Shown here: positions 55,546-60,631 of the stretch, one piece after another
Layout of the letters: each line of letters begins with the position of its first letter
Numbering within the stretch: position 1 is the first letter of the stretch
NCBI GenBank assembly: GCA_903879985.1
Contig: CAIRNR010000007.1
Coordinates: forward strand, 151,665 to 215,664
Reading direction: 5' to 3'
From: an uncultured candidate division WWE3 bacterium
GTDB taxonomy: Bacteria; Patescibacteriota; WWE3; UBA101185; UBA10185
DNA length: 64,000 nucleotides
Made by a program: the position numbers and the translations under genes
The notes under the pieces: model-generated
What the model was told of the DNA's origin: nothing
Seen by the model: only the letters and a program-made list of their open reading frames with translations
Databases searched by the model: none

Positions 55546-56169
55546 TTACTTTGTATACCTTTGGTCTAAAACTTCAACTGCATCTTTTATAAAAACAACT
55601 TTTTTAGCTTTAATGATGTCGTAGGCATTCATACTTCCGATAAAAGAAGTCTTAACTCCCACAATGTTAGCGGCACTCTTTATGACTGCTGTGTCTAATT
55701 CTTTCCAAACGATTAATACTCTTCCCTGTAGGTTTAAGTTAGCTAAGATTTCAACCATTTGTTTTGTGCTTGGTTTTTCAAGTGCTGGTTGTTCTAAAAC
55801 AACTGCCGTTTTGTTTGCAAACTTCTGAGAAAGAGCTGATCTCATTGCTAAGGCTCTCATTTTCTTAGGAAGGTCTAATCTCCAATCTTTTGGAGTAGGA
55901 CCGAAGGCGACACCTCCGTGGACCCAGATTGGACTTCTTGTAGAACCTTGTCTAGCACGACCTGTTCCTTTTTGTTTCCATGGTTTTTTACCACCACCTG
56001 AGACTTCACCTCTTGTTTTAACCTTAGAAGTACCTTGACGTTGATTTGTTGTATAAACTCTAATGTATTGAGCCAAAACCTTAAGATTTGGTACGATTCC
56101 AAATACACCATCTGAGAGTGTGATTTCTTCTTTTTTATTTCCTTTTATGTCTAATACTTCTACGTTCAT
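55546..56169 (-). CDS. rplD: 50S ribosomal protein L4.
   Basis: Sequence and operon position. Confidence 0.9.
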   Translation of the reverse strand: MNVEVLDIKGNKKEEITLSDGVFGIVPNLKVLAQYIRVYTTNQRQGTSKVKTRGEVSGGGKKPWKQKGTGRARQGSTRSPIWVHGGVAFGPTPKDWRLDLPKKMRALAMRSALSQKFANKTAVVLEQPALEKPSTKQMVEILANLNLQGRVLIVWKELDTAVIKSAANIVGVKTSFIGSMNAYDIIKAKKVVFIKDAVEVLDQRYTK

Positions 56170-56170
56170 A

Positions 56171-56599
56171 TTATTCTAAAACCTTTATAGTAATTTCTGA
56201 ATTTCTTGCACCTGGCAAAGCTCCAGAAACGTAAATATGCTTGCCACCTTCATCAATTTTAACGATCTTCAAGCCTTTTATAGTTACTCTGTAGTTACCC
56301 ATTCGGCCTGCCATATGTTTACCTGGGAAAACTCTTCCTGGTGTTTGACCGCCGATAGAACCTGCAGATCTTTGCTTATCACTTTGTCCTCTGGTTGCCA
56401 TTTCACCTTTAAAGTGCCATTTCTTCATAACACCGGCAAAACCTTTACCTTTGGATGTTCCAACCACTATAACGTCTTTATTCTCCATCTCTGGTGAGAC
56501 TTCGGTTTCAGCACAAACTATAGTTACTGGTACAACCCTTCCTGTTTCCAGAAAGATTTGGCTCATATTCATTTTTTTACCTTTTATAGTGTTTTCCAT
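56171..56599 (-). CDS. rplC: 50S ribosomal protein L3, unusually short (142 aa) with an internal deletion of about 65 aa relative to the canonical protein of about 210 aa.
   Basis: The N-terminus TIKGKKMNMSQIF aligns to the canonical GKKVGMTRIF. The centre GTSKGKGFAG and the methylation-site region GGQTPGRVFPGKHMAGRMGN are conserved. The segment between PVTIV and GTSKGKG is replaced by about 11 aa. Confidence 0.8.
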   Translation of the reverse strand: MENTIKGKKMNMSQIFLETGRVVPVTIVCAETEVSPEMENKDVIVVGTSKGKGFAGVMKKWHFKGEMATRGQSDKQRSAGSIGGQTPGRVFPGKHMAGRMGNYRVTIKGLKIVKIDEGGKHIYVSGALPGARNSEITIKVLE

Positions 56600-56613
56600 T
56601 TTTTTTCTAATAT

Positions 56614-56641
56614 AGTAAAAATTAGCGCCTCAAAGGGCGCC
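56614..56641 (-). terminator. Hairpin (GGCGCC-CUUUGA-GGCGCU on the minus-strand RNA) followed by AAUUUUUAC. Likely an attenuator or leader element about 25 nt upstream of rplC.
   Basis: The inverted repeat GCGCC...GGCGC is at 56625-56640, with the T-run at 56614-56623 on the minus strand. Confidence 0.35.
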
Positions 56642-56727
56642 ATTACAGCACAACCTTTGTTTTCTGTCTATTTTTTCTTTACGCTCATTAATTTAGTCAA
56701 TTTCAACCTAGTGTTAGCGCATGCGCT

Positions 56728-56756
56728 ATTATACAGTAAAATCGATAAAAAACTAC
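56728..56756 (-). promoter_or_regulatory. Putative internal promoter for rplC and downstream genes. It has a TGTATAAT extended -10 (minus strand, 56728-56735) and a weak -35. The GCGCATGCGC palindrome (56718-56727) overlaps the predicted start site.
   Basis: Seen in the 198-nt rpsJ-rplC spacer, which is unusually long for an S10 operon. Confidence 0.3.
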
Positions 56757-56797
56757 AATTCTGTTCGCGAAATGCGGAGAGAAAAGATAGCTAAATT

Positions 56798-57118
56798 TTA
56801 CATTCTCATCGATATACCAACACCTGCTGGCAGACTTAGTTTTGACAAATTCTCAATAGTCGATGGTGTTGGATTCAATACATCTATCACTCTTTTATGA
56901 GTTCTAAGTTCAAACTGTTCTCTTGATCTCTTGTCTATATGTGGTCCTCTAATAACGGTGAATTTCTCTATTCTGGTAGGCAAAGGAACTGGTCCAACTA
57001 CTTTAGCACCTGTTCTTATCGCTGTATCTACAATCTTTGAGCAACTAAGATCAATGATTCTACTATCGTAAGAGTTAAGTTTTATTCTGATTTTAATTTC
57101 TTTTGTTCCTTTAGCCAT
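56798..57118 (-). CDS. rpsJ: 30S ribosomal protein S10.
   Basis: 106 aa ending ...[13 protein letters not shown]. Confidence 0.9.
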
Positions 57119-57130
57119 AATCTCTTTCGG

Positions 57131-57157
57131 ATAAAATGCCCCCCGGTTAAGGAGGGC
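57131..57157 (-). terminator. Terminator or attenuator-like hairpin between tuf and rpsJ. The RNA is GCCCUCC-UUAACC-GGGGGGC followed by AUUUUAU.
   Basis: 7-bp G/C-rich stem (one G-U pair) at 57138-57157 and a U-tract at 57131-57137. It sits in a 58-nt tuf-rpsJ gap. Confidence 0.35.
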
Positions 57158-57176
57158 AATTTATCAGTTAATAATC

Positions 57177-58406
57177 TTAAGCAATTACCTTAGTGATAGC
57201 ACCTGCACCGACGGTGTGGCCACCTTCTCTAATAGCGAATCTCATTCCATCTTCCAAAGCTACTGGTGTAATCAACTTGACTGTAATCTTAACGTTGTTA
57301 TCACCTGGCATAACCATCTCTACACCTGCTGGTAAAGTAACTTCTCCGGTAACGTCAGTTGTTCTAATGTAAAACTGAGGTCTGTAACCTGAAAAGAATG
57401 GTTTGTGTCTTCCACCTTCTTCTTTAGAAAGAATGTAGACGGTTGCTTCGAAATCGGTATGTGGTTTAACAGAACCGGTTTTGGCTAAAACTTGACCTCT
57501 TTCGACGTCAGCTCGCTCAATACCTCTGATCAATATACCAACGTTATCGCCGGCTTGACCTTCTTGAAGTTGTTTCTTGAACATTTCTATTCCTGTAACA
57601 ACTGTCTTTCTAGTATCTTTTAATCCAACAATTTCGACTTCTTCGTTAACCTTGATAACTCCTCTTTCAATTCTTCCGGTAACGACTGTTCCTCTTCCTG
57701 AGATAGTGAAGACATCTTCAATAGGCATCAAGAATGGTTTATCTAAGTCTCTTACTGGTGTAGGAATGAATTCATCAACAGCAGTCATTAAGTCTTCGAT
57801 ACTTTTTACTGATTCTGGATCACCTTCCAAGGCTTTCATTGCTGAACCTCGGATTATAGGAGTTTTATCTCCTGGGTAACCATATTTTGTTAATAATTCT
57901 CTAACTTCAAGTTCGACCAAATCCAAGATTTCTTTATCTTGAACCATATCTGTTTTGTTCAAGAAAACAACCATTGCTGGAACGTTAACTTGTTTAGCTA
58001 ACAAGATATGTTCTCTTGTTTGTGGCATTGGGCCGTCTGCAGCTGAAACTACCAATATAGCACCATCCATTTGGGCGGCACCGGTGATCATGTTCTTGAT
58101 GTAGTCTGCATGACCTGGAGCATCGATATGTGCGTAGTGGCGTTTATCGGTTTCATACTCTACGTGAGTAATGTTAATAGTAATACCGCGTGCTCTTTCT
58201 TCAGGAGCTTTATCGATATTTTCATAGGCAACGTACTGTGCTTGACCTTTACCAGCCAAAACCTTAGTTATAGCTGCTGTCAAAGTGGTTTTACCATGGT
58301 CAACGTGACCAATAGTTCCAATGTTTACATGTGGTTTATTTCTTACAAATTCTGACATAAATTCACTGACTTTGATTGAACGTCCGCTCACGCGAGACGC
58401 ATTCAC
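57177..58406 (-). CDS. tuf: Elongation factor Tu. The track start is a GTG at 58406. The conserved N-terminus ([25 protein letters not shown]) begins at an ATG at 58358.
   Basis: [14 protein letters not shown] and NKCD GTPase motifs across the full EF-Tu length. Confidence 0.9.
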
Positions 58407-58546: not shown

Positions 58547-60631
58547 TTATCTACTTTTGCCTTTTGCAATTTCGGCGGCAACATTACCTGGAACCTCTTC
58601 ATAATGGCTTGGTTCCATACTAAAAGAGCCTCTACCTTGAGTCATACCTCTAAGTTCAGTTGCATATCCAAACATCTCGGACAAAGGAACTGTGCTTGAT
58701 ATAACTCGGGCATTTCCTCTTTGTTCTGTACCTTCAATCTTACCTCGTTTTGAGGAAATGTTTCCAATTACGTCTCCCATGTAGTCTTCTGGGACTGTAA
58801 CTTCAACCTTCATAATTGGCTCTAATAGGAATGTGTCTGCTTCGCGTTGGGCTGTACGCATAGCTTCAATAGCAGCCATCTTAAAGGACATTTCAGAGGA
58901 GTCGACTTCATGGAAAGATCCGTCGTGTAAAGAGACCTTTAAGTCTACCAATGGGTATCCTGCAATAGTACCGGCTTCAATGGCTTCCTTAACACCTTTT
59001 TCAACTGCTGGAATATATTCTCTTGGAATAGATCCACCAACAACTTTATCAACGAATTCAAAACCTTTTCCTCTTTCTTGAGGTTCGACCTTCATAACAA
59101 CGTGTCCGTATTGTCCACGACCACCAGATTGTCTAATGTACTTACCTTCAACGTCTACTGTTTTTCTAATGGTTTCTCTGTAAGCGACCTGAGGTTTACC
59201 TGTGTTTACTTCGACGTTAAATTCACGTTTCATACGGTCGACAATAATTTCAAGGTGAAGCTCGCCCATTCCGTACAATACAGATTGGCCTGTTTCATCG
59301 TTAGTTTTCATTTTTAATGTTGGGTCTTCTTCTAGGAACTTCTTTAAAGCATCAGACATTTTGTCGCGGTCAGCTTTTGACTTTGGCTCCAAAACTAATC
59401 CGATAACTGGTTCTGCAAAGCTAATTGCTTCCAAAACTACTTCTGTGCCTTCTTGGCAAATTGTGTCTCCAGTTGTCGCTTCTAAACCAACACCTGCTGC
59501 AATTTCTCCGGCTCTAATCTCTTTGATTTCTTCTCTGTGATTAGCGTGCATTAACAAGACACGACCAAGTCTTTCCTTTTTGTCTTTTGTTGTGTTGTAA
59601 AGGTATGAACCTGCTTGTGCTTTTCCTGAGTAAACACGGAAATAGGTCAATCTACCTACGTAAGGATCCGTTTGAACCTTGAATGCTAAAGCAACAAATG
59701 GTCCTTTTTCGTCTGGTGTAAGACTAATCTTTTCACCTGTTTTTAAATCATGACCAAGAATAGCTGGTGTATCTTCTGGAGATGGTAGGTAATCAACGAC
59801 ACCGTCTAAAACTTTTTGAACACCAATGTTAGATAAGGAAGCACCGCAATATACTGGGTAAAGTTTAGCGGCTACTGTTTGTTTTCTGATACCGGCTTTA
59901 ATTTCTTCAACAGATAATTCTTCACCGTTTAGGTATCTTTCAATCATTTTATCGTCGGATTCAGCAACTTTTTCAACAAGTTTAGCGCGGAATTGTTCAA
60001 CTTTTTCTTTCATATCTGCTGGGATGTCTACTTCAATAATGTCGGAACCTAATTGACCTTCAAACTTAAACGCTCTTCTTTCGATTAAATCGATAACTGT
60101 ATTAAAATCGTTTTCGATACCTACTGGAAGCTGTACTGCAACTGCATCGTTTGTTAATTTTTCAGCAATAGAATCAACTGACATGTAAAAATCACCGCCA
60201 AGTTTATCTAGTTTGTTTACGAAAAATAACAAAGGTACATTATATTTTTGAGCTTGTCGGAAAACTGTTTCGGATTGAGGTTCAACGCCTTGTGAACCAT
60301 CAAGGATAATAACACCGCCGTCTAATACGCGAAGTGATCTTTCTACTTCAGCTGTAAAGTCTACGTGACCTGGTGTATCGATAATGTTTATACGGTGATT
60401 ATTCCAAAAACAGGTTGTGGCTGCTGAGGTAATAGTAATACCTCTTTCTCTTTCTTGAGCCATCCAGTCCATTTGGGTTGCACCTTCGTGGACTTCACCT
60501 ATCTTGTGAGATTTTCCGGTATAAAATAGTACGCGCTCTGTTGTGGTAGTTTTACCAGCATCAATATGGGCGATTATGCCTATATTTCTAATTTTATCTA
60601 ACGGATATGTTTTATTTGTATTTTCAGCCAT
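58547..60631 (-). CDS. fusA: Elongation factor G.
   Basis: [13 protein letters not shown]1 motif. 694 aa. Confidence 0.95.

Follow-up and report, generated by a model that had tools for sequence, protein, structure and literature searches.

The main ribosomal-protein operon of an uncultured candidate division WWE3 (Katanobacteria) bacterium lies on the minus strand of a 64,000-nucleotide (nt) stretch of contig CAIRNR010000007.1 (assembly GCA_903879985.1, positions 151,665 to 215,664), hereafter called the window, in the order fusA, tuf, rpsJ, a 198-nt spacer, rplC, rplD, rplW and rplB, which is the classical str/S10 region (Table 1). An initial annotation of the window, made from its letters without database searches, had drawn attention to two features of this locus: a ribosomal protein uL3 of only 142 amino acids (aa), encoded by rplC, and the spacer in front of it, which was taken for an autoregulatory leader of the kind that normally precedes S10. 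Our analysis confirmed the observation, with the uL3 part proving ordinary for the lineage and already published, and the spacer emerging as a well-supported, undescribed attenuator-like RNA. Judged from its sequence and that of its relatives, the spacer contains a conserved switch by which the main ribosomal-protein operon is probably regulated at the level of transcription. To our knowledge, almost nothing is known about gene regulation in bacteria of the Candidate Phyla Radiation (CPR), most of which cannot be cultured alone, and the literature searched contained no description of either this WWE3 element or an attenuator based on an upstream open reading frame (uORF) in front of a ribosomal-protein operon.

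Table 1. Features of the rpsJ-rplC spacer and of the surrounding genes, in window coordinates
Feature	Position	Strand	Remarks
-10-like element TGTATAAT	56735-56728	-	putative promoter; TTGTAG 19 nt upstream, no good -35
Palindrome GCGCATGCGC	56726-56717	.	present in the window
uORF	56688-56668	-	ATG AGC GTA AAG AAA AAA TAG, MSVKKK; stop 8 nt before CAAAGG
Antiterminator 5' strand	56647-56659	-	CAAAGG (56659-56654) and inner GTGCT (56651-56647)
Antiterminator partner	56641-56631		GGCGC and CCTTTG; 5' arm and loop of the terminator
Terminator hairpin	56642-56623	-	TGGCGCC-CTTTGA-GGCGCTA; terminator scan; ends 23 nt before the rplC ATG
U-tract	56616-56622	-	A-UUUUU-A, directly after the hairpin
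Covariance-model match	56614-56674		whole element
rpsJ-rplC spacer, 198 nt	56600-56797	-	putative promoter and leader of the L3 operon
rplC (uL3, 142 aa)	56171-56599	-	Pfam Ribosomal_L3
rplD (uL4, 207 aa)	55546-56169	-	Pfam Ribosomal_L4, E 2.6e-66; second gene of the operon
rpsJ (uS10, 106 aa)	56798-57118	-	Pfam Ribosomal_S10, E 6e-34; upstream neighbour of the spacer
tuf-rpsJ spacer	57119-57176		
Hairpin in the tuf-rpsJ spacer	57137-57158	-	terminator-like
tuf	57177-58406	-	longest open reading frame
fusA	58547-60631	-	

The spacer and its promoter-like element

A long separation of rpsJ and rplC, such as the 198 nt pointed out in the initial annotation, is usual in this clade: over 49 unique WWE3-type spacers, the median length is 137 nt (range 48-290), as against a gap of less than about 60 nt in most other loci fetched. 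In about 40 distinct WWE3-clade loci the spacer retains a promoter-like -10 element, a mini-ORF (the uORF), an antiterminator strand and a hairpin with a U-tract. The -10-like element noted earlier is present in the window, and the closest relative (locus L164; 85% L3 identity) carries a canonical extended -10 sequence, TGTTAGAAT, at the aligned position. On the sense strand, the strict extended -10 motif TGnTAnAAT was found in 15/49 unique spacers, compared with 1.46 ± 1.12 in shuffled sequences (maximum 5), and on the antisense strand in 0/49.

The initial annotation had also singled out a palindrome, GCGCATGCGC, at the predicted start site. The palindrome is indeed present in the window, whereas the aligned position in the closest relatives, L164 and L165, lacks it; nothing therefore points to a function, and we rejected it as a functional site that is not conserved and is probably of no significance. 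When the 122-nt putative leader was folded, its 5' end UGCGCU, which is half of the palindrome, paired with AGCGUA, which directly follows the uORF start codon and makes up codons 2-3 (56682-56721, minus strand). This predicted pairing is probably fortuitous, since it is absent from L164.

Four loci from WWE3 subclades (L018, L095, L098 and L005) lack the terminator described below. An extended -10 sequence, TGGTAGAAT or TGGTAAAAT, is kept in the first three, with a CTGACA...TGTCAG hairpin after it in L018, and the spacer of L005, only 48 nt long, retains the motif AATTAATGA.

The predicted terminator hairpin in front of rplC

The GGCGCC/GGCGCU hairpin with its U-run, which the initial annotation had placed before rplC, was recovered by a terminator scan. 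In the window it consists of a 7-bp stem with five GC pairs and a 6-nt loop, followed by A-U5, and it folds at -11.5 kcal/mol (z score, -2.96), thus combining the GC-rich stem-loop and the adjoining U-tract of an intrinsic terminator; by its sequence, it would release RNA polymerase at the U-tract. The pattern GCGCC-N3-8-GGCGC occurs once in the 64 kb, where 0.05 occurrences are expected, so that it is not the generic terminator of this genome, and a reading as a generic terminator or repeat element was discarded because the hairpin is single in the window.

Conservation of the hairpin among relatives, on which the earlier proposal depended, was evident. The GGCGCC-loop-GGCGCU hairpin was found in 43/50 WWE3-type spacers, and those called in relatives have at least 4 T (usually 5-8) within 9 nt after the stem. 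When 38 distinct sequences were aligned by MAFFT, 87.6% of cells were paired, a value that 0/500 shuffles attained; the stem sequence GCGCC/GGCGC is itself near-invariant (about 33/38 sequences), and the loops vary. The hairpin ends 8-33 nt before the rplC ATG in 31/43 loci, and this closeness leaves no space in most loci for a downstream promoter, so that transcripts of the operon must cross the hairpin.

Hairpins in this position are also found beyond the clade. Six CPR loci outside WWE3 with a full-length L3 (L053, L031, L039, L121, L128 and L143) likewise show, 8-27 nt before rplC, a terminator-like hairpin and a T-run, such as AGGGCGCC-TGTC-GGCGCTCT in L053. A terminator before rplC may be widespread in Microgenomates-like CPR bacteria; a simple scan of the non-WWE3 CPR loci detected no clear pair of uORF and antiterminator.

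An upstream strand that changes with the hairpin loop

A hexamer located 8-16 nt before the hairpin is complementary to the top of its 5' arm and loop, and it changes together with the loop from locus to locus. In the window, the upstream strand CAAAGG faces the partner CCTTTG; elsewhere, we observed CAAGGG with CCCTTG, TCTGGG with CCCAGA, CTTGGG with either CCCGAG or CCCAAG, TTTAGG with CCTAAA, AAAGAGG with CCTCTTT, GAAGCG with CGCTTC and, at L023, a 12-bp match between GATTTGGTGTTT and GAGCGCCAAATC. To assess the strength of this association, we ran a permutation test that is independent of the helix register on 30 distinct apical classes, scoring the summed length of the longest Watson-Crick helix between strand and loop. 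The sum for own-locus partners was 147, compared with 110.7 ± 4.7 for permuted partners, and 0/20000 permutations reached 147.

The resulting antiterminator helix is the minimum free energy (MFE) structure of the nascent RNA, folded up to the loop, in 36/37 loci, and it sequesters 69% of the 5' arm of the terminator. Mean energies were -9.4 kcal/mol for the antiterminators and -11.8 kcal/mol for the terminators. In the window, an inner GUGCU/GGCGC helix extends the predicted antiterminator to 11 bp and -11.6 kcal/mol (z score, -3.17); the MFE structure of the 48-nt segment is the antiterminator, and its centroid structure is the terminator. With the two folds isoenergetic (-11.6 vs -11.5 kcal/mol), the element appears bistable. 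The two structures share a common strand and are mutually exclusive: given loops of 3 nt and only 0-1 nt in the connecting loop, they could not coexist as a pseudoknot, an arrangement that we rejected on this geometry, so the helices are alternatives. The signal resides in these sub-elements folded separately; the whole spacer is no more stable than its shuffles (z score, -0.30). A reading of the hexamer as a Shine-Dalgarno sequence or an anti-Shine-Dalgarno mimic fits some subclades only and was dropped.

A covariance model of the element gave one match per WWE3-clade locus, always just 5' of rplC, and matched 0/16 CPR loci outside WWE3. No Rfam family reached its gathering threshold in the whole window, and at E values up to 10 only chance-level matches were obtained in 56100-57300. 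The absence of Rfam matches at gathering score across the 64 kb extended to tRNA families, although no dedicated tRNA finder was used. In a distant lineage with a short L3 (L152, metagenome contig Ga0210058_1001848, positions 1277-1476; L3 of about 155 aa, 42% identical), the spacer follows the same logic with an unrelated sequence: a uORF encoding MPKTLNY, a strand TTTCGG complementary to the CCGAAA of a TCCCCGA-AAT-TCGGGGG hairpin, and then a U-tract, with the hairpin located 129 nt before rplC.

These comparisons also bear on whether the GCGCC...GGCGC repeat is a site on DNA, namely an operator for a dimeric transcription factor, or whether the short rplC and the long spacer are an artefact or a pseudogene. 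A GC-rich palindrome in AT-rich DNA is what an operator might look like; however, anything from 3 to 7 nt separates the half-sites, and the loop and the upstream strand covary, which makes sense only at the RNA level. An identical rplC with an identical 198-nt spacer is present in independent assemblies from JGI, ENA and NCBI, which rules out the local assembly collapse or artefact that the initial annotation had asked to be checked, and the short form of the gene is lineage-wide. Variable spacing, loop covariation and independent assemblies together effectively refute these readings, which we consider hardly credible.

A short open reading frame next to the antiterminator strand

In 35/37 loci, an ATG-initiated uORF with 3-16 codons terminates at a distance of 4-19 nt on the 5' side of the antiterminator strand, compared with 10.4 in dinucleotide shuffles, when uORF ends 0-22 nt from the strand were searched; control start triplets of similar frequency yielded 5-16 loci. 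Across the WWE3-clade loci, the uORFs are 5-14 codons long. The peptide predicted in the window is MSVKKK, and those predicted elsewhere include MIVNKP, MITRKT, MINKRT, MIKNKNT, MLRIKSKT, MVITVT and MLETSKNSRLVRKK, many of them ending with threonine directly before the stop. The reading frame is preserved where the length differs, as in L086 (21 nt, MINKRT) and L090 (24 nt, MIKNKNT). In L085, L088, L099 and L102, the uORF ATG follows a canonical extended -10 sequence (TGATAAAAT, TGGTACAAT, TGTTACAAT) by 7-8 nt, a spacing that suggests translation of the leader peptide from a leaderless mRNA in these lineages.

The conserved uORF is relevant to a simple alternative, in which the hairpin is an unregulated, leaky terminator that ends most tuf-rpsJ transcripts, the competing strand fixing the level of read-through and thereby setting the ratio of rpsJ to the L3 operon without any sensing. 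The hairpin with its U-tract does sit after rpsJ, isoenergetic folds would yield partial read-through without any factor, and its absence from the four loci mentioned above shows that it is dispensable. However, the enrichment of the extended -10 motif (15/49 vs 1.46) places a promoter-like element in the spacer upstream of the hairpin, which would then also act on transcripts starting after rpsJ, and the conserved uORF just before the competing strand would be left unexplained. We regard a leaky terminator as quite improbable.

Proposed mechanism and the evidence for and against it

The arrangement of promoter, uORF, antiterminator strand, terminator and first gene is best read as a trp-type attenuator cut down to regions 2, 3 and 4. 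With a confidence only slightly better than even, we propose that the lineage-wide minimal uL3 is preceded by a promoter and leader acting as a transcription attenuator that is set by the ribosome on the uORF. The proposal builds on features documented above by sequence comparison (the uORF, the two alternative helices and their covariation, the promoter-like element, the placement and the energetic balance), from which we infer termination at the hairpin, translation of the uORF and the direction of control.

The spacer would comprise the promoter and leader of the L3 operon (rplC-rplD-rplW-rplB...), the leader adopting one of two mutually exclusive RNA folds. In the nascent transcript, CAAAGG..GTGCT would pair with the 5' arm and loop of the hairpin, forming the antiterminator and allowing RNA polymerase to read into rplC; if this strand were unavailable, the GGCGCC/GGCGCU hairpin and its U-tract would form and transcription would stop 23 nt before rplC. 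The availability of the strand would be set by a ribosome translating the uORF of 6 codons, the stop of which is located 8 nt before the strand. Having arrived at this stop, a ribosome would cover or approach the strand and favour termination, whereas with the ribosome absent or lagging the antiterminator would form and the operon would be transcribed. The outcome would be a negative feedback of ribosome abundance or translation capacity on the synthesis of ribosomal proteins.

In the attenuators of ribosomal-protein operons known to us, the proteins themselves are the sensors. More tentatively, and at somewhat less than even confidence, the main ribosomal-protein operon of Katanobacteria may instead be controlled through the ribosome, not through a ribosomal protein that binds the mRNA encoding it. 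A uORF of 5-14 codons, sometimes leaderless, would report free translation capacity or inhibition of the ribosome to the antiterminator/terminator switch before rplC, and the element may constitute a new RNA family specific to a CPR lineage. The element represents a well-delimited and phylogenetically supported RNA switch of about 110 nt before the operon for L3, L4, L23, L2 and the following genes. If confirmed, it would link translation capacity to ribosome synthesis by direct feedback and offer a tractable element for heterologous tests.

Several observations weigh against a switch set by a translating ribosome. The -10-like element of the window has no good -35 and was not listed by a promoter scan, the window uORF has no Shine-Dalgarno sequence, and the predicted -10 and the uORF ATG overlap each other in L009 and L013. 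The uORF peptides are not conserved; they are rich in K, I, T, N and R, as AT-rich DNA predicts, and no run of regulatory codons is common to them across the loci. The uORF stop lies 4-19 nt from the strand, which in about half of the loci would be too far for direct coverage of the strand by a ribosome terminating there. When the antiterminator was scored column by column, pairing was weak, at 63-69% of cells in the MAFFT and covariance-model alignments; a slide -1 control was as good or better (68.5% and 72.9% paired), and only 2/5 shuffle measures exceeded their controls. We attribute the weak column-wise counts to a helix register that slides by one column between subclades, and the claim of covariation therefore rests on the register-free permutation test. 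The loci are also phylogenetically related, so their counts are not fully independent, and the near-invariance of the stem could equally reflect recognition by a protein.

This last point leads to the main rival explanation, unlikely in our estimation, in which the same switch is set autogenously by uL4, in analogy to the S10 leader of E. coli, or by uL3. The protein would bind the GGCGCC hairpin or the antiterminator, favouring termination when it is in excess over 23S rRNA, and the uORF would be incidental or serve another role, such as protection against Rho as in the rplJL leader of B. subtilis. The element stands directly before an operon whose second gene is rplD, which makes uL4 a candidate regulatory protein by analogy. 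A near-invariant stem (about 33/38) combined with variable loops suggests sequence-specific recognition, and the hairpins of the tuf-rpsJ spacers, by contrast, are not conserved in sequence. Attenuation driven by ribosomal proteins has precedents in the S10 operon of E. coli and in rplJL and infC of B. subtilis, and an L4 leader precedes rplC in Archaeoglobi. However, no Rfam ribosomal-protein leader matched, even at E values up to 10, the segment between antiterminator and hairpin contains no conserved sequence that would mark a binding site, and the strong excess and fixed placement of the uORF would be left unexplained. For the ribosome-set attenuator, the different behaviour of the two hairpins has another meaning: the rplC hairpin, which does not drift in sequence as the tuf-rpsJ hairpins do, fits a double pairing constraint.

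Comparison with known leaders

In the WWE3 element, as in the trp, his and leu attenuators, a uORF comes first, and behind it are an antiterminator and an intrinsic terminator with one strand in common. The position of the WWE3 uORF stop, just before the antiterminator strand, corresponds to that of the trpL stop ahead of region 2. Unlike these attenuators, the WWE3 element shows no region 1 or anti-antiterminator that we noticed (no complement of the hexamer was seen by eye upstream in the window leader; relatives were not systematically searched) and no run of regulatory codons, its uORF is limited to 5-14 codons and in some cases seems to be leaderless, and it precedes a ribosomal-protein operon rather than genes of amino-acid biosynthesis, with no matching Rfam leader.

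The initial annotation had likened the spacer to the leader that normally precedes S10. That an attenuator-like element is present was upheld, whereas no tie to the S10 or L4 leader type emerged; the comparison of loci instead revealed a conserved mini-ORF with an antiterminator/terminator pair behind it, the layout known from leader-peptide attenuators. In the uL4- and NusA-dependent S10 leader of E. coli, an intrinsic terminator also lies a few tens of nucleotides before the first gene, and the L3/L4/L23/L2 operon is concerned in both cases. The E. coli leader, however, precedes rpsJ, whereas that of WWE3 lies between rpsJ and rplC, and no match between the two was found in sequence or structure. 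The S10 leader family is confined to Gammaproteobacteria, and we know of no pair of uORF and antiterminator in the E. coli leader.

The rplJL leader of B. subtilis also places a ribosomal-protein operon under alternative structures, namely an anti-antiterminator, an antiterminator and a terminator, and it has a leader peptide as well (Yakhnin et al. 2015; PMC4538822). Its sensor is L10(L12)4, and its leader peptide is encoded downstream of the terminator and counters Rho (PMC4538822), whereas in WWE3 the uORF precedes the antiterminator. Another candidate leader immediately before rplC-rplD-rplW-rplB is the L4 leader, which has been described upstream of rplC in Archaeoglobi only, with none for CPR bacteria (Eckert and Weinberg 2020). 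The rimP-leader, a conserved leader terminator with an unusually conserved stem sequence (Naville and Gautheret 2010), provides a precedent for a leader terminator conserved in sequence. Both of these belong to other lineages and have other structures, with neither a uORF nor a covarying antiterminator strand.

The shortened uL3 of the WWE3 lineage

The rplC product matches Pfam PF00297 (Ribosomal_L3) at 53.7 bits, against a cut-off of 22, and its gene occupies the position between rpsJ and rplD that is conserved elsewhere. Residues 6-33 correspond to residues 5-32 of E. coli uL3 and residues 39-139 to 103-204 (phmmer against uL3 chains in the PDB; E 6e-32), leaving about 65 residues of the E. 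coli protein (33-102) without a counterpart. Alignment by MAFFT with 17 full-length L3 proteins from the fetched loci showed a single 62-column gap after residue 30 (...PVTIVCA / ETEVSPEM...). The internal deletion of about 65 aa inferred in the initial annotation is thus borne out, as is the conservation of the GTSKGKGFAG motif and of the glutamine in GQTPG; the interval between PVTIV and GTSKGKG, estimated there at about 11 aa, amounts to 18 residues, which leaves the size of the deletion right. The protein falls short of the complete bacterial globular domain of about 200-210 aa. No open reading frame in the 64-kb window encodes the lost segment, since a hidden Markov model of the missing L3 part searched against the six-frame translation gave a best E value of 0.69 with a negative score, compared with 8e-18 at a control locus, and a split gene, the other check suggested by the initial annotation, is ruled out within the window.

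An AlphaFold2 model of the protein contains six strands, which we read as a compact beta-barrel, with a predicted local distance difference test (pLDDT) score of about 90 in the globular part, and a long low-confidence loop at residues 60-100. This loop corresponds to the extension with which uL3 of known ribosomes reaches into the peptidyl-transferase centre, and the model aligns with bacterial uL3 chains over their full length with a gap (Foldseek E 6.5e-10). The minimal uL3 would accordingly lack an accessory globular-domain segment of about 65 residues and retain both its beta-barrel core and the long loop directed at the peptidyl-transferase centre.

The 142-aa uL3 to which the initial annotation drew attention is the normal, lineage-wide form in WWE3; it is known, and it is not peculiar to this genome. 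All 120/120 closest database homologues are 130-176 aa long (mode, 142-144), with identities of 57-100%, and those that are named belong to candidate division WWE3 or the "Patescibacteria group"; the identical protein is present on 27 contigs. An L3 of 140-150 aa was found in 22 loci, mostly titled WWE3 (L004-L025; one genome per GTDB species), and in more than 30 metagenome loci, compared with about 200-250 aa in the fetched loci of Shapiro-, Woese-, Dojka- and Paceibacteria and of non-CPR bacteria. Among representatives clustered at 50% identity, about 30 of the best 150 matches were short forms, some of them with C-terminal extensions. An internally shortened uL3 in some CPR bacteria is already on record (Tsurumaki et al. 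2022, RNA 28:1041; PMC9297842), in a main text that gives no uL3 lineage, coordinates, structure or gene context. Relative to that report, the deletion is placed here at E. coli residues 33-102, assigned to the WWE3 clade and, within the 64-kb window, separated from a split gene. These data add detail to the picture of the pared-down CPR ribosome, with a deleted segment that can be mapped and a natural minimal uL3 for structural work.

Six homologues (P0124, P0149, P0155, P0168, P0186 and P0225) combine the short-type core, defined as one aligned stretch over query residues 5-138, with a total length of 194-225 aa, owing to C-terminal extensions of about 50-90 residues.

The tuf-rpsJ region

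A second terminator-like hairpin is found in the tuf-rpsJ spacer, where TGCCCTCC-TTAACC-GGGGGGCA, with TTTTAT after it, ends at a distance of 18 nt from the rpsJ ATG. A strong hairpin is present in this spacer in relatives too, with a freely drifting sequence and an often poor U-tract. The rpsJ gene is therefore flanked by two hairpins. The longest open reading frame of tuf begins with GTG and encodes 409 aa, and gene callers on identical contigs use an internal ATG that yields 393 aa, so that translation probably does not include the first 16 residues.

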